This document shows, one piece after another, positions 14,368 through 33,584 of a DNA stretch of 64,000 bases. The notes beneath the pieces are model-generated. The model made no database searches. It was not told the origin of the DNA and worked only from the letters and a program-made list of their open reading frames with translations. Each line of letters starts with the position of its first letter. The first letter of the stretch is position 1. This DNA is from Candidatus Microgenomatus sp. (GTDB lineage: Bacteria > Patescibacteriota > Microgenomatia > UBA8517): contig DYGS01000001.1 in the NCBI GenBank assembly GCA_020724585.1, positions 422,002 through 486,001 of the forward strand. The letters are read 5' to 3'. The position numbers and the translations under genes are program-made.

Positions 14368-14448
14368 ACGCGACAAATTTTCAAATAACTCTAAAATTGC
14401 GCAAGTGCAAATTCGTTATTTGTAAATCTGTAAATACCCTATATTAAT

Positions 14449-14477
14449 TTGCTAAATCTAAGGCTGGGTGATATACT
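14449..14477 (+). promoter_or_regulatory. sigma70-like promoter (TTGCTA-17-TATACT), followed by a 130-nt leader with 11-bp long-range inverted repeat (14503-14513 pairs with 14569-14579)
   Basis: Motifs read in the sequence. Confidence 0.4.
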
Positions 14478-14609
14478 CCCACCAAGCACTTTTACATTCA
14501 AAGTTGGCAGCTTTTTGCCTTTGATAAGTCAGTACTTTAGCACATTTTTCTAAAATATCAAAGGTTGGAAGCTGCCAACAAAATCTGTTATCCTAAAAGG
14601 AGAAGAAGA

Positions 14610-15635
14610 ATGAACACAAAACGGGTTCTTACTGGTATGAGAACGACGGGTCAGTTGCATCTTGGGCACTATGTGGGCGCTCTGAAGCAATGGGTTGAAG
14701 TCCAAAACACAGGAGATTATGATTGCTATTTCCTGCTGGCGGACATCCAAGCTTTGACGACACACGCAGACCGTCCCGAGCTTTTGACCACATCTGTTCG
14801 TGATGTCGTTCTCGACTGGCTGGCTGTTGGACTTGATCCAACACGGCCAAACGTGCACTTCGTTCTTCAGAGCCAGGTATCCGAAAGGGCGGAACTTTCA
14901 ATTGCCCTCTCAATGATTGCCGGCTACAACGAAGTCACGCGAAATCCCACCCTGAAAGCGGAATTAAAAGATCTTGGCAAGGATGCCACGATTGGCTTCA
15001 TTGCCTATCCGGTGGACCAAGTTGCGGACATCTATATGGTGTCTCCAACTCCACCCGAATCTGGCGATAAGCTGTTGGTTCCGGTCGGGGAAGACCAAGT
15101 TCCTCACCTTGAGTACGCAAGGGTACTAGCACGCCGCTTCAATCAGAAGTACGGCAAAGTGTTTGTTCCCTGCGAAGCTCTGGTGGGCGAAGTTGGAAGA
15201 CTTGTGGGAACTGATGGTCAGGCAAAAATGAGCAAAAGTAAGGGGAATACCATCAATCTTGCTGATGATGCTAAGACTGTCGAGTCCCAAGTCATGAAGA
15301 TGTTCACTGACCCTAAGCGTATCCGTGCAGATATGCCGGGGGATACCGTGAACAATCCGGTGTTCATCTATCACCGCGCTTTCAATCCTGACAAAGACGA
15401 AGTTGCAGATCTTGCCGAAAGGTACAAGAAGGGCAGAGTCGGAGATGTGGAAGTAAAAAGTCGTCTGGCAGCCGTCTTAAACAACTTCCTCGATCCGATC
15501 CGTGAGCGCAGGGCAAAATTTGAGCGCGAAGATCTACGCGAACTTCTTGTCAAAGGGACAAAGGCCGCAAAAGAGGCTTGTGTTCCCGTCATGCAATCTG
15601 TTCGCGAAAAGATGCATCTCGTCTATCCTCAATAA
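14610..15635 (+). CDS. trpS: tryptophanyl-tRNA synthetase, GC-rich copy
   Basis: HIGH motif (GQLHLGHY) and KMSKS; RBS AAGGAG; about 50% GC. Confidence 0.85.
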   Translation: MNTKRVLTGMRTTGQLHLGHYVGALKQWVEVQNTGDYDCYFLLADIQALTTHADRPELLTTSVRDVVLDWLAVGLDPTRPNVHFVLQSQVSERAELSIALSMIAGYNEVTRNPTLKAELKDLGKDATIGFIAYPVDQVADIYMVSPTPPESGDKLLVPVGEDQVPHLEYARVLARRFNQKYGKVFVPCEALVGEVGRLVGTDGQAKMSKSKGNTINLADDAKTVESQVMKMFTDPKRIRADMPGDTVNNPVFIYHRAFNPDKDEVADLAERYKKGRVGDVEVKSRLAAVLNNFLDPIRERRAKFEREDLRELLVKGTKAAKEACVPVMQSVREKMHLVYPQ

Positions 15636-15653
15636 ATTTGAAAAGGAGAAAAA

Positions 15654-16640
15654 ATGAAGACGAAACCTTTATGGCGCACAGCATTTTCGCTTGCGCTCCT
15701 CGCGGCAATCTTCTCCGCCGTCTACAAGGCAATGGACAACATCACGGTTCACAATTTCATTGTCGCAGATGACGGATTGACGCAAGCCTTTTCTTACCTG
15801 ATTGTGGGAGGATGGACCGGCGTTGTTTTCGGTCTGATTTTCTCTCTACTTTTGGGTAAGAAAATCATTGACGATGATTTCAACGGGCTTGTTTTCAAAA
15901 ACAGCACCATGCACTGGCAGGCCATAATCGCCGGCGCGATCTCTGCAGGAAGTACACTTTTCCTGCTCTGGGGAAACCAACTTGGCGACCCCAGCATGCT
16001 GATTGCGTTAGGAAGTGGAACCATCCTGTTCACGTCTCTCTACGACGTAGCAAGCAAGCAGGCAAGAACTAGTAATCTTGTCTATCCTGCGCTGCTTGTC
16101 TTGATTGGCAGTGGACTAGCCGCCTTTGGAGGATCACTTGCAGTAACCCTCACGGGAATTCTGTTTGTGGTTTTCCTCTCAAACGGCCTGAATGCTCTTT
16201 CTGAGATAGTGGAGCAAAAGGGTGTGAGGGCGAGCGATGGAGTAAACTTCTTCCTCTGGCGATTCTTTTGGCTGGCAACTACAGGAACTGTCTTGGCGAT
16301 TGTTGTATCGGGGCTGCGAGGTTATTTGGAAATGCTTTGGAGCACAGTAGCCTCTGCACTGAAATATATCCCGTTCATTGCCCTGACAATGTTCTTCGTT
16401 TTCCTGGGGATCGGCCTGAAGCTGGTTGCCAAGAAAGTCAGTGCCGTATCGATGGTGCTCATTGTTCTATCCGCCCAAATAATTCTGGGGTATCCGATCA
16501 CTTTGCTCGGAAACTGGGTTTTCCCCGGACTATTTGGAGAGATTCCTACCGAACTTTGGATCTGGGTAATCCGGCTGTTAGGTGCGATACTCATCATCTG
16601 GGCTATCCAACTCTTGCGAAAGCAGGATTCAAAGAAGTAG
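15654..16640 (+). CDS. polytopic membrane protein, DMT/EamA-like transporter (about 10 TM helices)
   Basis: Two 5-TM repeats, RBS AAAGGAG, GC-rich like trpS. Confidence 0.5.
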   Translation: MKTKPLWRTAFSLALLAAIFSAVYKAMDNITVHNFIVADDGLTQAFSYLIVGGWTGVVFGLIFSLLLGKKIIDDDFNGLVFKNSTMHWQAIIAGAISAGSTLFLLWGNQLGDPSMLIALGSGTILFTSLYDVASKQARTSNLVYPALLVLIGSGLAAFGGSLAVTLTGILFVVFLSNGLNALSEIVEQKGVRASDGVNFFLWRFFWLATTGTVLAIVVSGLRGYLEMLWSTVASALKYIPFIALTMFFVFLGIGLKLVAKKVSAVSMVLIVLSAQIILGYPITLLGNWVFPGLFGEIPTELWIWVIRLLGAILIIWAIQLLRKQDSKK

Positions 16641-16702
16641 CGAATACAAGTTTAAGGCGTGCCTTTCAATTTGGAGAAATCCGAAGCGAGAGGTACGCCT
16701 TT

Positions 16703-17467
16703 TTAGTTTCCAAATCCAGGCTTAAAACTTGGTATAATTCTCTCTACATCTTCCCGTAGTTTATCCTCTGGATTAACATAACCAGCTAGTACAACAGAAT
16801 CTCCTTCTCTCCAATTCATGCCCGACATGTCATCTATTGCAATTTCTTCAAATTGAATTTGATCTTCGTATAAACTCTTACCTCCTTCAAACGAGTTTAC
16901 ATACAGCCCCTTAATTACATTACCGACTTTCATAAATTTTGAACCCTCAAATTTGTTCGCTGCCATTCTAACTGATAAATCATAGTTAATACTTGCAACT
17001 TTATGTAAAAGCCCTCGCATTCTTTTGCTTTGGGTACAAAGAGCGATAGCTTCTTGCTTGGCTTCAAGCAGGTCTGTAGCTAGCAGATAATGTCCAAGGC
17101 CAGATCCTCTAAAGTTGGGGTGTGTAATAATGCCACTTAGATAGTAAAAGTCTAAATCCAGGGCTCGAACTTTTTTGGAAGCTATAAAAGCAGCCGGAAA
17201 ATTGTCCATTAACCTTCTGGCTACAATTAGCCTTTCTGCACCAATTATATGGTCATTTACATCTTTCACAAACAGCGGGTCTTCAAAGTTGCTCCTGAGA
17301 AAACCAATTCCGGTGAGAGGTCTAAATTCTTCGGCAATAGAAGCATACTCTTGAGGGACTAACTCACCACAAGTGTATCTTTTAATTTCGACGGACATTC
17401 CGTTAAAAGTTCTGATTTCACTTCTTGGATAAAGTATTCTTTCCATAATCCAATAAAAAAGCGCCAC
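16703..17467 (-). CDS. GNAT-like acetyltransferase domain protein (weak call)
   Basis: HPNFRGSGLGHYLL resembles GNAT motif A. Confidence 0.3.
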   Translation of the reverse strand: MALFYWIMERILYPRSEIRTFNGMSVEIKRYTCGELVPQEYASIAEEFRPLTGIGFLRSNFEDPLFVKDVNDHIIGAERLIVARRLMDNFPAAFIASKKVRALDLDFYYLSGIITHPNFRGSGLGHYLLATDLLEAKQEAIALCTQSKRMRGLLHKVASINYDLSVRMAANKFEGSKFMKVGNVIKGLYVNSFEGGKSLYEDQIQFEEIAIDDMSGMNWREGDSVVLAGYVNPEDKLREDVERIIPSFKPGFGN

Positions 17468-17532
17468 GAAGGCGCTTTAAGTATTATTTCTTAAAACTTT
17501 CCACCAAATTTCAATTTTCATCATTTTCTATT

Positions 17533-18579
17533 TTACTTTAAATTTTCTAATTTTTCAATCGTGTAATGAAAAGCACCTTTTATGGCAGAAAGAATGTTTT
17601 TGACTGTTCCCCATGCTGCGACTGAAACTAAAGCTTCTCCAAATACTCCCCCTATTGTTCCAGTAACTACATTTTGTGCAAGCCAGGATTCAATTAGGGG
17701 GGACGAGGCTGCGATTTTGGTAAAAAGAATTATTGGTCCGGCAACAGCTCCACCAACGGCAACGATTGGTACTGTCTTATCTTCCGCCTCATCCATCCAT
17801 TTAGAAAGTCTGTCAACGGGAGCTTGAAGGAAAATAACGGATGCCTCAGCAATGGTAATAATTAGGGGAGTAGTCATGCCTCTAATTTTAGATGTTCTTA
17901 TTTCTCCTTTTACTTTTTCAGCTTTAACAAGAATCTCTCCTCTATTGGCAAGCTCCTGCGCAGTTTTTCCTTTTTCAGAGATGGTTAGTCTATTAAGCCC
18001 CTCTCTCAAAGCAACAAGAGCTGTTTCGGCTTCAATTTCAGCGGATTCACTGGCTATTTCAGAAGCAGAGAGAATTATTGTTGCCAATTCTTTGTGAAAT
18101 CTCAAAAAGTCAAAAAATCCTTGAGGATTAAGTTTACCTTCAGGACTTAAAATAGGCTGGTATTCAGAATTTTCTTCAGAAATATCTTTATATACCTTAA
18201 CAATTGTGGTTTCTTTCCCGAGCATGGCAGAAAATCCCTCGTTGACCATGCCCATTTGCTTCTTAAGATTATCTAATCTTGTCTGATCTGTTTTTATTGA
18301 AGCATCAAGATATTTCTCTTCTATTCCTTCCCTGAAGTAATCAAGAAGAAGCTTTTTGCTCTCGTCATCCCCCCTTACAAGCTGACCCATTAAAACTCTC
18401 AACTGAAGAATCCCTTCGCTTGTTCTTTGAGCTAATGACAAATCATTTTCAATGTTTCCACTCTCTACAATTTCATCTTCAACTGGTCCGACAGGTTCAT
18501 TTGGTCTTTCCTGGGGAACCCCCTGTATTAAACTTTGGAATCTGGTCAATTTTTCGTTCATTAACGCGTGTTTTATCAC
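17533..18579 (-). CDS. hypothetical protein with hydrophobic C-terminal region
   Basis: ORF; C-terminal GxxxG-rich helices. Confidence 0.4.
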   Translation of the reverse strand: MIKHALMNEKLTRFQSLIQGVPQERPNEPVGPVEDEIVESGNIENDLSLAQRTSEGILQLRVLMGQLVRGDDESKKLLLDYFREGIEEKYLDASIKTDQTRLDNLKKQMGMVNEGFSAMLGKETTIVKVYKDISEENSEYQPILSPEGKLNPQGFFDFLRFHKELATIILSASEIASESAEIEAETALVALREGLNRLTISEKGKTAQELANRGEILVKAEKVKGEIRTSKIRGMTTPLIITIAEASVIFLQAPVDRLSKWMDEAEDKTVPIVAVGGAVAGPIILFTKIAASSPLIESWLAQNVVTGTIGGVFGEALVSVAAWGTVKNILSAIKGAFHYTIEKLENLK

Positions 18580-18753
18580 AACCTATAGGCAAAAGTCAAC
18601 AAAAATATTAAAATTGGGAAAAATGACAAACTCATCGGTTTTCATCGGTCAGAAAAAAAGTATACTTTGAAACATGCTTGGGCTAATCAGATGCTATTAA
18701 AATTAAAACAAGAGTAATCTGACATAGCCCAATCTTCCCTTTCACCCATCTCC

Positions 18754-19080
18754 TTGAAAAGGAGAGAGATTGATAATTTGAACACAAAATTAAAAATTCT
18801 TTTAGGCACTTATTTTGATCAAGAAATAGATAGAGAAATATATAGACAAAAGAAGTTTGAACTTGTATCTAAAAGAAAAACAATTGAAGAACAAATTATC
18901 AATTTACAAAACAAGAAAGGGAGTTGGATCGAACCCATGAGGGAATGGATAAATGAAGCTACACAAGTACCTAAAACAGTATCATCCAACAATATGGATG
19001 ATAAAAAGGTTCTCACCAAAAAAATCTTTGGATCGAACCTTTTTTTAGAAAACAAAAAACTCCGAGGGGATGGGCAAAAG
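18754..19080 (+). pseudogene. gene fragment, possibly the C-terminal coiled-coil part of a large serine recombinase (very tentative)
   Basis: Starts at a TTG with no proper N-terminal domain; runs into tRNA-Gly; sequence flavour (WIEPMREWINEA, LENKKL) resembles recombinase C-terminal tails. Confidence 0.2.
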
Positions 19081-19123
19081 TCGTGGTCTTCGCTTCGCTC
19101 GACCTCGACAGATCGGTCATCGG

Positions 19124-19195
19124 AGCGGTGGAGCGGGCTTGAACCGCCGACCTCTTCCTTGGCAAGGAAGCATTCTACCACTGAACTACCACCGC
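19124..19195 (-). tRNA. tRNA-Gly (anticodon GCC)
   Basis: Acceptor GCGGTGG/CCACCGC, anticodon stem-loop CTTCC-TTGCCAA-GGAAG, T-arm GGCGG-TTCAAGC-CCGCT. Confidence 0.8.
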
Positions 19196-19250
19196 AAATT
19201 TCAAATATTCAGTGACCAAGCTTTGCTTACCACTGAACTACCACCGCAAA
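19176..19250. repeat. 23-bp direct repeat of the tRNA-Gly(GCC) 5' end plus 3-nt flank (19176-19198 and 19228-19250) around the spacer AGCAAAGCTTGGTCA...TATTTGAAATT
   Basis: Exact repeat; spacer shared with the tRNA-Leu(UAA) and tRNA-Leu(UAG) loci. Confidence 0.85.
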
Positions 19251-19396
19251 GATTTATTCGAGCAAATACGCAATCGCTCCCATGCTGTGCTGAGAGTTGG
19301 AGTTGCACCAACATCTGGGCTTCTTCAGAGCTCCGCCGTGACTACCTTGGCTATCTCAGCTAACTAAATGTATTATATCAAACTTATATATTTTTG

Positions 19397-19622: not shown

Positions 19623-19736
19623 GATGACATCCTCCCCGCCATACTGGCGGGGTATCCGTCTAAACGAGGATGACATATCAGCGTTCAATTCATCCACGGG
19701 CTTATCGCCCGTGGTTTTCTTGAATGCTGTTATAAA
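19623..19736. repeat. 114-bp hairpin-rich element, copy A (intergenic); inverted copy at 26031-26143
   Basis: Reverse complement matches 26031-26143 with 2 mismatches; internal palindromes CCCCGCCATACTGGCGGGG and CCACGGGCTTATCGCCCGTGG. Confidence 0.85.
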
Positions 19737-19746
19737 AATGCAATAT

Positions 19747-19857
19747 CAAAAGACATAAATTATTTTGAAATTAAAAATGCAGACCATAGTTACAGAAATG
19801 AATCAAGAGAGCCTGTTTTTGAAGATGAGATCATAGATATATTTAAGCGATTGTAGC
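19747..19857 (+). pseudogene. 3' fragment (about 110 bp) of an alpha/beta hydrolase gene; direct repeat of 21709-21818
   Basis: About 85% identical to the 3' end of CDS 21228..21818 (first 57 nt nearly identical); encodes ...KDINYFEIKNADHSYRNE... Confidence 0.7.
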
Positions 19858-21227: not shown

Positions 21228-21818
21228 ATGAATATTTCGAGTTTAAAATTTGTTGAAAATAAATCAGATACCTTAGATGTATTACTTCATGGTAGTAAAG
21301 GTGGAATGAATTATTCATTGATGCAAAAGATTGAGGATGTTTGTATAAAGCAAGGTCATTCGGTAGCTAATTTTAACTTCCCATATTTTGAAAGAGGAGA
21401 AGAACAATCTTCAGGACCAGAATTAAAGGAAGAATTAGAAACATTAAAATCAGTTTTAAATGAGTGTAATTCAAAAGAGTATAAGCATACAAGACTAATT
21501 GGAAAATCACTTGGTGCAATTATCGCTAGCTATTATCTAAAATCGTTACAAAAAGAAGAACAATCAAAATATTCTGTAGTAGTTTTTGGATATGTTACAG
21601 GAAGTATTGATTTAAAAAGTTTTGATGGAAAAATAGATATTATTCAAGGTGAGAAAGACAAGTTTGGAAGTATGGAAGTAGTTAAAAATGATTTAAAAAC
21701 GGCAGTTTCAAAAGATATTAATTATTTTGAAATTAAAAATGCAGACCATAGTTACAGAAATGAACTAAAAGAACCTATTTTTGAGGATGAGGCTATAGAA
21801 ATATTTAAAAATATATAA
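21228..21818 (+). CDS. alpha/beta hydrolase
   Basis: GxSxG (GKSLGA) and C-terminal His; the 3' end is duplicated at 19747-19857. Confidence 0.55.
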   Translation: MNISSLKFVENKSDTLDVLLHGSKGGMNYSLMQKIEDVCIKQGHSVANFNFPYFERGEEQSSGPELKEELETLKSVLNECNSKEYKHTRLIGKSLGAIIASYYLKSLQKEEQSKYSVVVFGYVTGSIDLKSFDGKIDIIQGEKDKFGSMEVVKNDLKTAVSKDINYFEIKNADHSYRNELKEPIFEDEAIEIFKNI

Positions 21819-22877: not shown

Positions 22878-23186
22878 TGTTTTAATTATAACTCAAATTG
22901 ATATAAATAAAATTACATTTTCAACTTTTAGAAGCACAAGAACAAGCAAAGAAACAAAAATTTGGAAAACGAGTATTTTAAGATTGTTCAAGAATTGAAC
23001 AATTTCAAGCTTGCTTATGTTATCAGTAAGCGTGAGCTAGGCATAACAAAACACAGTGGGTAAGCGGAAGGCCGAAACGAGCGAAGCGAGTGGATGACTG
23101 GAGCGCACACACGATATGGGTTAGCGAAGCTCCGCGAAGCGGAGCTGAGCGAGCAAACACGAGCTTCGCTACAAAATTAAAAATGG

Positions 23187-23270
23187 TGTCGAAGGAGAGA
23201 TTTGAACTCTCACGCTCGAATGAGCACACGCTCCTGAAGCGTGCCTGTCTACCAATTTCAGCACTTCGAC
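23187..23270 (-). tRNA. tRNA-Leu (anticodon CAG), long variable arm
   Basis: Acceptor GTCGAAG/CTTCGAC, anticodon stem-loop CACGC-TTCAGGA-GCGTG. Confidence 0.8.
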
Positions 23271-24734: not shown

Positions 24735-24910
24735 GTGATCACCATTTATAAACTTGACAAACCTATAGTCATATGCTATATTACCACTACATTCTGAGGC
24801 TGCTTTGATAATTATCAATGCCGGCGTTAGGATTTTACAGGTCCCGTCTACATGACGGGACTTTTTTTTCTAAATTTCTAGTATAATGTAAATTGATGCC
24901 GGAGTGGTTT

Positions 24911-24985
24911 AACAAGTCGGAGTGGCGAAATTGGTAAGCAAAGCTTGGCCAATTTCTTTAACAAGTCGGAGTGGCGAAATTGGTA
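24911..24985. repeat. 26-bp direct repeat of the tRNA-Leu(UAG) 5' end plus 5-nt flank (24911-24936 and 24960-24985) around the spacer AGCAAAGCTTGGCCAATTTCTTT
   Basis: Exact repeat. Confidence 0.85.
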
Positions 24986-25046
24986 GACGCGCAGGATTTA
25001 GGATCCTGTGGAGTAATCCTTGCAGGTTCGATTCCTGTCTCCGACA
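24965..25046 (+). tRNA. tRNA-Leu (anticodon UAG), long variable arm
   Basis: Acceptor GTCGGAG/CTCCGAC, anticodon stem-loop CAGGA-TTTAGGA-TCCTG. Confidence 0.8.
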
Positions 25047-25182
25047 CTTAAAGATTATGCAATTAATTCACAAACTTACAAGAAAAGAGAGAGATGTATT
25101 GTCAGTTTTTTTGATGTTTATACCCATTGTCATCTTTTTTAGTGTACTTGCATTATTTTTAATAATTGTTTAATATCTAATT

Positions 25183-25946: not shown

Positions 25947-26522
25947 ATGTTTAAGTCAATTTTAGCCCCCATTATTGGTGTTATATTGTTTATTGTTTTC
26001 GTCGGTCTTTTATATCAAGGCAAAATGCCGTTTATAACAGCATTCAAGAAAACCACGGGCGATAAGCCCGTGGATGAATTGAACGCTGATATGTCATCCT
26101 CGTTTAGACGGATACCCCGCCAGTATGGCAGGGAGGATGTCATTAATAATAATCAAAAGTCAGTTACTATAAACAACAAAGAAATTAAAGTAGAAGTCGC
26201 CAAAACAAATGAAGAAAGGGCAAAGGGCTTATCAGGTAGAGACTCTCTTGAAGCAGATTCAGGCATGCTCTTCATTTTTAATAATCAAAAGCCTATTTTT
26301 TGGATGAAAGATACAAAAGTCGCACTCGATATCATCTGGATTAACGATTTAAAAATTGTCGGGATTAATAAAGATGTCCAACCGGAGCCTGGCGTTTCGG
26401 AAGATAAATTAAAAAAGTATCCCGCCCCAGAAGAAATCGATTTAGTTTTAGAAGTTAGCGCAGGTTACTCAGACAAAAATAATATCAAAGTAGGTGACAA
26501 TGTAGAGCTTAATAATATCTAA
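25947..26522 (+). CDS. DUF192-family protein with an in-frame 114-bp repeat-element insertion in the linker
   Basis: DUF192-like core (GLSGRDSL...DSGMLFIF...FWMKDTKVALDIIWIN); residues encoded by 26031-26143 come from repeat copy B. Confidence 0.5.
   Translation: MFKSILAPIIGVILFIVFVGLLYQGKMPFITAFKKTTGDKPVDELNADMSSSFRRIPRQYGREDVINNNQKSVTINNKEIKVEVAKTNEERAKGLSGRDSLEADSGMLFIFNNQKPIFWMKDTKVALDIIWINDLKIVGINKDVQPEPGVSEDKLKKYPAPEEIDLVLEVSAGYSDKNNIKVGDNVELNNI
26031..26143. repeat. 114-bp hairpin-rich element, copy B (inside a CDS, in frame)
   Basis: Reverse complement of 19623-19736. Confidence 0.85.
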
Positions 26523-33439: not shown

Positions 33440-33507
33440 ATGAGATATAATTATAATATAGTACGAAAAATACTTGGATTCTTTCACTTTTGGTGTAAGA
33501 GTACTTT

Positions 33508-33584
33508 GGATTCTTAGCTCAGTTGGCTAGAGCGCTTTCTTGACGTGAAAGAGGTCGCAGGTTCAAGTCCTGCAGGATCCACCA
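33508..33584 (+). tRNA. tRNA-Val (anticodon GAC), CCA encoded
   Basis: Acceptor GGATTCT, anticodon stem-loop CTTTC-TTGACGT-GAAAG, T-arm CAGGTTCAAGTCCTG. Confidence 0.85.

Follow-up and report, generated by a model that had tools for sequence, protein, structure and literature searches.

Positions 19199 to 19250 of the window, the 64,000-nt stretch of DNA that was analyzed, hold one member of a lineage-specific family of short hairpin cassettes found in Woesebacteria/Microgenomates-like genomes. We read these cassettes as a REP/MITE-like family, previously undescribed; a literature search covering the core sequence, tRNA D-loop insertions and partial duplications, and Patescibacteria REPs returned no description of the cassette. 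Insertions in tRNA genes appear to survive through re-duplication of the tRNA 5′ part: when a second 5′ copy follows the cassette in the D loop, a complete tRNA gene persists downstream. The explanation that we put forward, and to which we give an even chance, combines a lineage-specific cassette family, a nearly neutral hairpin, local insertion-duplication, and a separate recombinase event. Mobile DNA classically lands in tRNA genes, and the known pattern is a 3′ fragment parted from its gene by a whole island; a 20-40 nt cassette at the D-loop position of many tRNAs, with the gene kept via a second 5′ end, would be a different route to tRNA fragments.

Sequences of the tRNA-Gly locus are written here in tRNA orientation (minus strand). 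The first-pass annotation described CTTTGCGGTGGTAGTTCAGTGGTA followed by AGCAAAGCTTGGTCACTGAATATTTGAAA and then by TTTGCGGTGGTAGTTCAGTGGTAGAATGC..., and the locus reads as claimed. The 23-bp duplicate that it reported, inclusive of 3 nt of flank, was recovered in a repeat search as an exact 23-nt direct repeat (19176-19198 and 19228-19250; offset 52 nt, with a 29-nt spacer between) composed of 3 leader nt (TTT) and nt 1-20 of tRNA-Gly(GCC). What it called a shared spacer is indeed shared, and resolves into a conserved hairpin core of 12-14 nt (UAAGC-AAA-GCUUG) and, behind it, a short stretch in which the tRNA D-arm is copied in inverse. The parts of the locus, in order of transcription of the tRNA, are as follows.

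19228 to 19250, minus strand: upstream non-functional copy X1, made of 3 leader nt and tRNA-Gly nt 1-20 and ending in the D-loop ...GGTA
19216 to 19229, minus strand: cassette core TAAGCAAAGCTTGG, with a 5-bp stem and an AAA triloop; the core overlaps GGTA by two bases, its initial TA
19208 to 19215, minus strand: X′, the short inverted D-arm copy, TCACTGAA; the perfect complement would be CCACTGAA
19199 to 19207, minus strand: filler TATTTGAAA, between X′ and the second copy
19122 to 19198, minus strand: intact tRNA-Gly(GCC) together with the 3 leader nt of the second repeat copy (ARAGORN; Rfam)

X1 comes directly after the native Phe-Gly spacer. The promoter-proximal copy at 19228-19250 is a native but dead fragment with the intact gene downstream, at 19122/19124-19195 by ARAGORN and Rfam (Rfam tRNA score 67.2 bits). 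Because an uninterrupted tRNA-Gly lies downstream in the window, a tRNA intron, whether group I or of the archaeal bulge-helix-bulge type, was rejected. X′ lengthens the core hairpin to ~13 bp, and the hairpin has a predicted energy of -14.6 kcal/mol (RNAfold; z = -2.4 versus shuffles). A promoter/terminator scan found promoter-like sites upstream of Phe and Leu and nothing resembling a promoter or a terminator between Phe and Gly; it likewise reported no promoter-like site inside the cassette and no intrinsic terminator at 19196-19250, and the hairpin is not terminator-like. Among Rfam covariance models, tRNAs alone reach threshold in the window, and on five array-bearing loci matches at E <= 0.1 are limited to tRNAs and the glmS ribozyme.

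Three canonical cassettes (Gly-GCC, Leu-TAA, and Leu-TAG) and one variant at tRNA-His make up the window's complement, so that three to four of its 16 tRNAs carry a cassette. The sister structures are these.

3179 to 3238, minus strand: sister at tRNA-Leu(TAA), a 20-nt copy of tRNA nt 1-20 (3219-3238) and a 40-nt cassette/filler (3179-3218)
24898 to 24964, plus strand: sister at tRNA-Leu(TAG), a 29-nt copy (24908-24936) and a 20-nt cassette (24937-24956)
659 to 717, minus strand: variant at tRNA-His, a 17-nt repeat GTTACTCGGTGATTGTA (701-717 and 659-675) around AGGGAAACCTTAGC...

The flanking direct repeats of the canonical structures thus measure 20, 23, and 29 nt. At tRNA-Leu(TAG), 8 leader nt (24957-24964) open the second copy, and an older 10-nt remnant, GCCGGAGTGG, lies at 24898-24907; at tRNA-His the insertion follows TGTA at tRNA position 9. 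The 14-nt core occurs exactly three times in the window (3207-3220, 19216-19229, and 24935-24948), each time directly after the ...GGTA of a 5′ tRNA copy, which gives a cassette junction of GGTA followed by AGCAAAGC. The full 31-nt tRNA-Gly spacer, in contrast to this core, is found once in the window, and 0 of 100 shuffles matched it. That last result speaks against a chance repeat, as the presence of the same architecture in dozens of independent assemblies speaks against an assembly artefact, a reading with nothing in its favor beyond the general hazard that repeats pose to metagenome assembly. An independent Logan assembly, from run SRR5011273 (L072), which matches the tRNA-Leu(TAG) sister structure base for base, also argues against an artefact, and we regard chance or misassembly as having a negligible probability.

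Relatives define the general form of the cassette. It starts right after (G)GTA, the tRNA D-loop GGTA being by far the commonest site, and consists of the core hairpin flanked by GG...CC, then 5-10 nt of inverted pre-GGTA sequence, then 0-30 nt of filler. Seventy-nine copies of the core were counted across the loci examined. Its variants, some of which sit in D loops of tRNAs (L022 tRNA-His, L075, and the window tRNA-His), include compensatory stem changes (AAGG-AAA-CCTT and AAGG-GAAA-CCTT) and variable loops. X′ is tailored to the local tRNA elsewhere too, as in CCAATTTC, CCATTTTCAC, and CCGCTGAG. Exact TATTTGAAAT has two occurrences in the window, each within a cassette spacer (Gly and Leu-TAA), and the tRNA-Gly filler aligns, across an 11-nt gap, with those of L025, L030, and L045. 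Three origins for the filler were considered and rejected: a decayed full-length inverted 5′ part (no overall similarity signal), a duplicate of the leader upstream (which was seen at Leu-TAG alone), and a remnant of the tRNA 3′ part, for which two isolated short matches were regarded as chance.

The sequence GGTAAGCAAAGCTTGGYC is present in 57 genome loci, ~45 of them in Woesebacteria/Microgenomates/Patescibacteria bins; bins titled "Gammaproteobacteria" that have the window's gene order are evidently mislabelled. In about two thirds of the ~45 the core comes directly behind the GGTA in the D loop of a tRNA gene, with at least 15 anticodon types represented, and the remaining third are tandem cassette arrays, some abutting TGGTA(A/T)AAT promoter boxes. 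The 31 cassette-bearing tRNAs in these loci (30 of which were counted directly in the tally) belong to Leu, Gly, Met, Thr, Lys, Ile, Gln, Ala, Pro, Trp, His, Tyr, and Glu. In most loci the duplication starts within 0-4 nt of the tRNA +1; upstream copies lie 11-25 nt behind TATAAT boxes, and carry mismatches in L045, L049, L061, and L027, which marks the upstream copy as native and dead. Matches to the core 16-mer in viral contigs number six, none with tRNA context, and so give no sign of a phage origin.

Comparing the locus in related genomes, a check proposed in the first-pass annotation, revealed both persistence and turnover. The tRNA-Gly insertion is common to three distant genomes, which carry a homologous insertion at the same tRNA-Gly type (L025, L030, and L045), and is therefore old or has travelled with the tRNA; two loci syntenic with the window (L066 and L070) have no core there. 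In L066 the Leu-TAG site is empty; L070 has another variant of the core there, located identically in the D loop. In three pairs of loci (L013/L064, L019/L046, and L025/L045), flanks are ~68% identical, cassette regions align at 86-93%, and the upstream copy follows each genome's own tRNA. At the other extreme, the 99% identical strains represented by L078 and L082 differ in the number of units and in the presence of the second copy. An apparent D-loop "intron" in the tRNA-Thr of L015 was downgraded on the same ground, as the 99%-identical L082 has an intact gene and a longer array; the interrupted tRNA-Thr of L015/L078 would thus be a recent deletion. Annotation of candidate-phyla-radiation (CPR) genomes should take these cassettes into account wherever a tRNA copy is partial or a tRNA looks "split".

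How do these cassettes compare with known small repeats? REPs are short palindromes with a conserved 5′-foot GTAG, present in hundreds of copies and served by RAYT (Y1/HUH) transposases. Like REPs and BIMEs, the cassettes are short, imperfect, non-coding, lineage-specific palindromes with a stable predicted hairpin, occur as singletons and in arrays, and follow a 5′-foot motif, (G)GTA; unlike them, they strongly prefer tRNA D loops, and their flank is duplicated and partly inverted locally. Nor do they reach the tens to hundreds of extragenic copies of a REP family: there are three canonical cassettes in 64 kb and few per genome, with ~3-10 exact core copies (for example, two loci in the 983-kb chromosome OY970314.1, by a GTDB scan). 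With MITEs, Correia, RUP, ERIC, and Rickettsia palindromic elements they share small size, non-autonomy, structure formation, and tolerance in transcribed regions, but at 20-40 nt they are far shorter, and part of their interior is specific to the site; terminal inverted repeats are not present, and instead of a short duplication of fixed length there are repeats of 20-29 nt that vary. Spacer integration by Cas1-Cas2 at CRISPR loci also places a 20-40 nt insert between duplicated segments of 20-30 nt. This is a resemblance only, as the cassettes share a core, the duplicated sequence differs from site to site, and no leader or cas context was seen.

These likenesses raise the prospect of a non-autonomous transposable element moved in trans by an HUH/Y1 transposase (IS200 or RAYT-like) or by another nuclease acting on single-stranded DNA hairpins, inserted 3′ of GTA and leaving a long, variable target duplication. 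The insertion site, always after (G)GTA or (A/T)TA, accords with this idea, as do the small, imperfect, REP-like palindrome of the core, the self-contained units of mosaic arrays (a-b-b-a-c in L037), and the presence of IS200-type Y1 transposases in the lineage (L073). On the other side, IS200/IS605 and REP systems are not known to duplicate their target, the hairpins of the L073 IS are unlike the core, copy number is low, and the tRNA-specific inverted segment must arise locally. A tblastn search of the window and of the loci other than L078-L095 detected no IS200-type Y1 transposase, and the 25 most frequent of 70 Pfam families matched by the 56 window ORFs are housekeeping families only, with no transposase or reverse transcriptase among them. 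We consider mobilization in trans rather unlikely.

We favor instead a local origin, probably by hairpin-seeded template switching. The core would be copied in at GGTA and snap back on itself; a few flank bases would then be copied inversely, as in quasipalindrome template switching; and synthesis would return to the original template upstream of the tRNA start. A working essential tRNA would be left solely where the whole 5′ part was regenerated, which is why such events are the ones seen. With the downstream copy under selection, short-tract conversion could keep the direct copies identical. The direct-inverted-direct order of quasipalindromes and inverted triplications is made by replication template switches and arises as sporadic mutations. 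The cassettes resemble these by description, with the same upstream copy, inverted segment, and downstream copy; the inverted segment adjoins a hairpin that was already there, the junctions have hardly any homology or none, and the fillers are short. They differ in that one conserved core recurs at dozens of sites with a stereotyped outcome, which implies a templated or enzyme-guided step. Counting against this origin, the analysis turned up no enzyme or template for the core, and the fillers lack significant similarity to the inverted 5′ part, to the leader (Leu-TAG excepted), and to the tRNA 3′ part. In many array units, too, the inverted segment pairs with downstream GGTA-proximal sequence instead of the upstream flank. 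The sharp boundary of the duplication is also not obviously predicted by random re-priming plus selection; it could instead trace back to where the mature RNA begins, to the foot of the acceptor stem in single-stranded DNA that has folded, or to conversion that stays within the conserved part. Whatever their origin, the loci offer cases from nature, in reduced genomes, of direct-inverted-direct rearrangement associated with hairpins.

Once in place, the structure would do little. tRNA-Phe and tRNA-Gly probably share a transcript, in which the dead copy, core, and inverted segment would form the ~13-bp hairpin within the Phe-Gly spacer; an RNase P cut at the true +1 would discard that hairpin, making the structure nearly neutral. 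The minimum-free-energy folds computed by RNAfold complicate this picture: in all three window precursors the acceptor stem is built with the upstream copy, a pairing that would be costly if it occurred in vivo. Persistence across very divergent genomes, along with perfect upstream copies, could likewise mean function rather than neutrality. In that event the decoy 5′ copy, the hairpin, and the anti-D-arm would form a selected, functional RNA leader module. It could work as a switch for folding or processing, the anti-D-arm pairing with either the decoy or the real D-arm; as a 5′ hairpin that confers stability; or as the precursor from which RNase P frees a stable small RNA similar to a tRNA 5′ half. 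The conserved core with its compensatory stem variants, a hairpin stability above that of shuffles, the retention of the insertion despite ~68% identical flanks, with a decoy that changes in step with the tRNA, and a three-segment direct-inverted-direct layout that recalls attenuator logic all fit such a module. Several observations do not. Cassettes of the same kind occur in non-tRNA arrays, some next to the promoter boxes, close relatives lack the cassette at the same tRNAs, copy number and presence differ between the 99%-identical strains, and most tRNAs of the window do without one. The inverted segment, moreover, is often imperfect and drifts while the decoy stays perfect; over all sites its pairing with the flank is only modestly above control. 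A selected leader module is unlikely, though, if functional, it would open a new aspect of how tRNA precursors work in an uncultured phylum. We are similarly doubtful of the broader proposition that either a functional tRNA-precursor module of Microgenomates or an undescribed mechanism is at work, the latter recognizing folded tRNA-gene DNA or the tRNA, inserting at the D-loop GGTA, and remaking the 5′ part from +1.

The nearly neutral, locally generated cassette that we prefer leaves the neighboring recombinase to be explained. The ORF at 18754-19080 exists as described in the first-pass annotation, and its frame extends upstream to ~18646 through an in-frame TAA at 18715-18717.

18646 to 19121, plus strand: C-terminal remnant of a large serine recombinase (LSR), ~150 codons, converging on the tRNA 3′ end, with no catalytic domain left

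Pfam gave no recombinase match for the ORF fragment, and homology was therefore established through relatives, which bear out the suggestion of a serine recombinase tail. In L075, a homologue (P0001) with 66% identity to the fragment follows a Resolvase+Recombinase N-terminal part, the two being split by an IS30-like insertion; in L002, a Zn_ribbon_recom domain is directly upstream of the tail homologue; and full-length recombinases of L066, L029, and L049 match window positions 18646-19200 by tblastn (E = 1e-13 to 1e-16). The N-terminal parts, with the catalytic resolvase domain, have no match anywhere in the window. Judged from its sequence, 18646-19121 is a pseudogene remnant of an LSR, and the presence of such a tail at the tRNA 3′ end indicates that an integrative element was once located there. 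A tiny recombinase-end remnant also lies 3′ of tRNA-Leu(TAA), at 3041-3093.

The first-pass annotation had further suggested that such a tail would link the 5′ duplications to past integration. The recombinase tail is real, as is the past integration at the tRNA 3′ end, but the 5′ duplication does not appear to be its product. In att duplications the duplicated portion is normally the 3′ part of the tRNA. Integrative elements are reportedly known to leave partial tRNA gene copies of this kind, as described by Williams in 2002 and Reiter in 1989. The two tRNA copies flank an element of kilobase scale (PMC9897764). A recombinase gene remnant adjoins the tRNA here as well; in contrast to att duplications, the 5′ 20 nt are duplicated, the copies lie 29 nt apart around a conserved hairpin, and the recombinase remnant sits outside the repeats, at the other, 3′ end of the tRNA. 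The copies are thus not at opposite ends of an element, nothing between them has coding capacity, and no second tRNA-Gly 3′ part that could be a displaced att fragment was found elsewhere in the window.

Were the 5′ duplication and spacer nevertheless att scars of the neighboring serine recombinase or a similar integrase, the spacer being what remains of the element or an attP arm, an intact element would end in GGTA followed by AGCAAAGCTTGG... and in ...filler plus the tRNA 5′ part. The recombinase tail that abuts tRNA-Gly and the remnant 3′ of tRNA-Leu(TAA) suggest such a connection, as do the dyad symmetry of the core plus flanks, expected of a recombinase site, and a recombinase-bearing element in L068 that adjoins a tRNA-Leu with a 5′ remnant upstream. 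Yet serine recombinases make no target duplication, and the end of the element (GATGACCGAYCTGTCG...) is found at the 3′ end of the tRNA, where it begins immediately past the discriminator and ~55 nt away from the D-loop junction. Each tRNA has an inverted segment of its own, so that a shared att arm was rejected, and arrays of the core occur away from tRNAs. In L066, L045, L049, L002, and L073, recombinase-adjacent tRNAs have no 5′ duplication; in L026 and L030, the cassette-bearing tRNA-Gly sits in a tight cluster with the next tRNA within ~20 nt, leaving no room for an element. Recombinases are not enriched at cassette-bearing tRNAs, being adjacent to one of 31 versus two of 72 other tRNAs among loci found through the core. 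The att-scar reading is largely refuted already, and we hold it to be very improbable.

The separation of INDEPENDENCE from the recombinase is argued from the tRNA clusters, the position of the element end, and the recombinase counts at tRNAs, and the adjacent tail appears to record an integration event separate from the cassette. Recombinase-end remnants at two of the four cassette-bearing tRNAs of the window (a hand Fisher estimate gives ~0.14), together with the co-occurrence of both features on one tRNA in L075 and L029, leave room for a weak association between cassette and recombinase.

As a side observation on the recombinases themselves, the elements that encode serine recombinases in these bacteria are consistently found directly against the 3′ end of a tRNA, and the recombinase is read antisense into that tRNA.

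The first-pass annotation described tRNA-Gly(GCC), which both ARAGORN and Rfam place at 19122-19195 on the minus strand, as an intact gene preceded by a spacer and a duplicate of its own 5' end. A repeat search of the window bears this out, giving an exact 23-nt direct repeat (19176-19198 = 19228-19250) that comprises, as claimed, 3 nt of upstream leader together with tRNA nt 1-20 and terminates at the GGTA of the D loop. Read in tRNA orientation, the locus is CTTTGCGGTGGTAGTTCAGTGGTA / AGCAAAGCTTGGTCACTGAATATTTGAAA / TTTGCGGTGGTAGTTCAGTGGTAGAATGC..., and the 31-nt spacer found 0 matches in 100 shuffles. The core of the spacer is indeed shared with other tRNAs: the 14-mer TAAGCAAAGCTTGG has exactly three copies in the window, each directly after the copied 5' part of a tRNA gene, and a fourth gene carries a variant.

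tRNA-Gly(GCC): 23-nt copy, 29-nt spacer
tRNA-Leu(TAA): 20-nt copy, 40-nt spacer
tRNA-Leu(TAG): 29-nt copy (8 nt of it leader), 20-nt spacer
tRNA-His variant: 659-717, minus strand (tRNA at 594-667), 17-nt repeat GTTACTCGGTGATTGTA present twice, around the variant core AGGGAAACCTTAGC

By our reading, all three canonical insertions are in tRNAs with GGTA in the D loop; the tRNA-His variant, whose core has an AAGG/CCTT stem and a GAAA loop, is inserted after TGTA at tRNA position 9, not in the D loop. The segments that follow the core (TCACTGAA, CCATTTTCAC and CCAATTTC) are each a short inverted copy of the D-arm of their own tRNA, so that dead copy, core and inverted segment are predicted by RNAfold to form a hairpin of 13-15 bp closed by an AAA triloop (~-15 kcal/mol, z -1.7 to -2.4). 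A single mismatch to C at position 4-5 is frequent in inverted segments. Two of the window fillers, which complete the cassette ahead of the second 5' copy, have an exact TATTTGAAAT in common. Upstream of tRNA-Val(GAC) at 33508, the beginning of that tRNA is partly duplicated on the plus strand at ~33470-33520 (TACTTGGATTCTT ... TACTTTGGATTCTTAGCTC). No canonical core is present there, though GGTGTAAGAGTACTTTGG, which lies in between, may be a degenerate version. tRNA-Leu(CAG), 23184-23270 on the minus strand, is an ARAGORN call whose score in the Rfam scan of the whole window stays below the tRNA gathering threshold.

A scan of GTDB for GGTAAGCAAAGCTTGGYC, with each species represented by one genome, returned 57 loci (L-numbers below denote loci fetched from other genomes). 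Eleven are isolated matches that lie in unrelated phyla, away from any tRNA, and we regard these as chance; the remainder come from Woesebacteria/Microgenomates/Patescibacteria bins, making the cassette a repeat family of a CPR lineage. Several MAG records are titled "uncultured Gammaproteobacteria" (L011, L014, L016, L020, L024, L025, L027, L030, L032, L038, L039, L044, L050, L056, L059 and L061), but these carry Woesebacteria-like genes in the window gene order at 45-75% protein identity, and their titles look wrong; for such bins among the scan loci the identity is 45-60%, a range shared by the named Woesebacteria loci. About two-thirds of the lineage loci have the same architecture at tRNA genes, with 31 cassette-bearing tRNAs that span Leu (4 anticodons), Gly, Met, Thr (3), Lys (2), Ile, Gln (2), Ala (2), Pro, Trp, His, Tyr and Glu. 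Among core variants, compensatory changes (AAGC..GCTT to AAGG..CCTT) preserve the stem, and the loop varies between AAA, ATA, GTA, ACA and GAAA. The other lineage loci are tandem arrays of self-contained units, one a 30-mer, AGCAAAGCTTGGCC-AGTCAAAGCC-CTGGTA, and another a 23-mer, AAGCAAAGCTTGGCCTTCGGCTA. Some arrays terminate in ...AAATGGTA immediately before AAAT or TAAT and thus adjoin boxes of the form TGGTAAAAT or TGGTATAAT, similar to extended -10 promoter elements; the start of a pilin gene follows shortly after one array. At L060 (~5960-6000), a tRNA-Gln 5' fragment (TGCGGGATCGTCTAATGGTA) continues directly into TAATTAATTG to give a TGGTATAAT-like box, a junction suggesting that the TGGTA of D loops and that of -10 boxes can be joined by rearrangement. 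Rfam holds no family matching the cassette in the window or the array-bearing loci, the core was not found in any tRNA context in viral contigs, and a literature search found no description of the cassette; the Microgenomates family, of which the tRNA-Gly site is one instance, is apparently undescribed.

Two syntenic relatives, L066 and L070, found through the neighboring methyltransferase (62-66% protein identity), have no core at tRNA-Gly; L025, L030 and L045, which share the tRNA-Gly sequence type of the window, carry cassettes homologous to that of the window, with an 11-nt gap. At tRNA-Leu(TAG), the L066 site is empty and L070 carries another core variant at the identical D-loop position. 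The window also holds, at 24898-24907 on the plus strand, a 10-nt remnant, GCCGGAGTGG, of the ancestral tRNA 5' end; it equals the tRNA-Leu(TAG) 5' end of L066 and L070, unlike the working window gene (GTCGGAG/CTCCGAC). It appears to be an older 5' remnant, the second at this locus and lacking a core, and indicates repeated events at one site. L078 and L082, strains 99% identical over 8 kb, have sharply unlike cassette regions: in L082 (1000-1250), an intact tRNA-Thr(GGT) is preceded by a remnant, then five units of 23 nt and a final cassette, whereas in L078 (6900-7100; similarly L015, 300-480) four units are joined directly to tRNA nt 22-76, leaving a tRNA-Thr that is perfect apart from a 91-nt D-loop insertion, a state we interpret as a recent deletion. 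The cassette regions of L013/L064, L019/L046 and L025/L045 align at 86-93% between flanks only ~68% identical, and the remnant tracks the tRNA in each genome, a D-loop C/T difference between L013 and L064 being found in both copies. Because near-identical strains differ while divergent pairs retain their cassettes, the structure is dynamic at fine scale yet long-lived at some tRNAs.

The upstream copy occupies the native 5'-end position, 11-25 nt behind TATAAT boxes or, at tRNA-Gly, behind the Phe-Gly spacer. Since the upstream copy has mismatches in L045, L049, L061 and L027 and the downstream copy remains complementary to the 3' acceptor strand, we take the downstream copy to be the working gene and the upstream copy a remnant. 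Our window scan for promoters and terminators placed promoter-like sites upstream of tRNA-Leu(GAG) and tRNA-Phe and found neither a promoter-like site between Phe and Gly nor a terminator-like site; a polycistronic precursor therefore probably contains both the remnant and the hairpin, which RNase P would cut off. In the RNAfold minimum free energy structures of all three precursors (19122-19255, 3094-3240 and 24905-25047), the 3' acceptor strand pairs with the upstream dead copy, not with the true 5' end; were cells to form this pairing in vivo, correct folding of the tRNA would face competition from the remnant.

The product is stereotyped: a flank with terminal GGTA, the conserved core, a short inverted copy, filler, and a direct copy of the flank. 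Such a direct-inverted-direct order is what would be expected if synthesis snapped back and switched template at a hairpin. Away from tRNAs, inverted and direct copies are short, at 4-9 nt, and are separated by loops of 1-8 nt. A short-copy event at a tRNA would yield an interrupted gene, the L015/L078 state; only events resuming at or before +1 would restore the tRNA, and these selection would retain. The duplication boundary is sharp at +1. The Gly alignment suggests that the leader may have been part of the ancestral duplication and that the tRNA part alone was kept identical later, in which case the apparent +1 boundary would reflect conversion, not mechanism.

ORF 18754-19080, offered in the first-pass annotation as a possible serine recombinase tail, is indeed one. 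Its frame runs from ~18646 to the tRNA, crossing an in-frame TAA at 18715-18717, and the full-length recombinases of L066, L029 and L049 match 18646-19200 (E = 1e-13 to 1e-16). The 15 database homologues of the tail are all short (85-174 aa), many of them reading antisense into tRNA genes of various kinds past a conserved ...GDGQKSWSSLRSTPTGRS. What precedes the tail is an N-terminal Resolvase+Recombinase part in L075, with an IS30-like gene as interruption, an IS200-type transposase gene in L073 and a Zn_ribbon_recom domain in L002. The recombinase gene converges on the tRNA 3' end in all cases seen:

tRNA-Leu(TAG): L045, L066, L068
tRNA-Leu(TAA): L049, L002
tRNA-Lys(CTT): L029
tRNA-Phe: L073
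tRNA-Thr(CGT): L075

Within the tail subfamily, element sequence GATGACCGAYCTGTCG starts directly after the discriminator. The window tail is thus a real remnant of an integrative element that had its junction at the 3' end of the tRNA. Full-length serine recombinases also match briefly, by their extreme C-termini, at 3041-3093, immediately 3' of tRNA-Leu(TAA), and at 7600-7695, immediately 3' of tRNA-Lys(CTT); part of each match is the antisense tRNA itself, and the two suggest more decayed element ends. When the 3-kb L066 element was compared with the empty L070 site, its far end showed no displaced piece of the tRNA.

Serine recombinase genes are themselves disrupted by insertion sequences, at L073 3580-3996 by the gene of an IS200-type Y1 transposase that contains an in-frame TGA, and at L075 1252-2229 by an IS30-like HTH_38 gene. 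L068 (8900-16700) holds an island of conjugative type: a complete serine recombinase of 571 aa runs antisense into tRNA-Leu(TAG), and behind it come DUF87/TraG-like, NlpC/P60 and Replic_Relax genes. The acceptor stem of this tRNA differs (GCGCGGG/CCCGCGC), and upstream lies a 5' remnant, GCCGGGTGGTGATAGAC, that lacks a hairpin core. The window segment from tRNA-Trp to tRNA-Gly (~14400-19120), with the recombinase tail at its end, has a G+C content of 0.42-0.46 vs ~0.33 elsewhere, and the syntenic relatives lack counterparts of its ORFs 16703-17467 and 17533-18579; it may be the decayed body of the integrated element.

The recombinase identification is confirmed, but a causal link between past integration and the duplication is not supported. 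Among loci found through the core, a recombinase adjoins 1 of 31 cassette-bearing and 2 of 72 other tRNAs, and five recombinase-adjacent tRNAs have no 5' duplication; serine recombinases are not known to duplicate DNA. Cassette and recombinase are combined at L075 and L029, and the cassette by recombinase-end table for the 16 window tRNAs is 2/2/1/11 (one-sided Fisher p ~0.14, by hand). Recombinase and 5' duplication are mostly not linked, with at best a weak association, e.g., through shared hot spots. At L026 and L030, a tRNA-Arg lies within ~20 nt after the cassette-bearing tRNA-Gly.

The nearest analogues are integrative-element tRNA fragments (PMC9897764), REP/BIME elements, MITE-like repeats and quasipalindrome template-switch rearrangements. 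The cassette shares aspects of all four but lacks, as tested, the defining features of each, and we therefore file it with small palindromic repeat elements, as one with a tRNA D-loop preference and a compensating 5' duplication. An att scar was rejected as the class of the tRNA-Gly structure.

A 113-nt inverted repeat (19624-19736 / 26031-26143, 99% complementary) has one arm next to the tRNA cluster and its second arm within the DUF192 gene (25947-26522). It is abutted by a 113-nt direct repeat (19734-19846 vs 21696-21808, 86% identical) in which the end of ORF 21228-21818 is copied. Taken with the NUDIX block, which lies elsewhere in L066, these repeats point to a rearrangement between tRNA-Leu(GAG) and tRNA-Leu(CAG).
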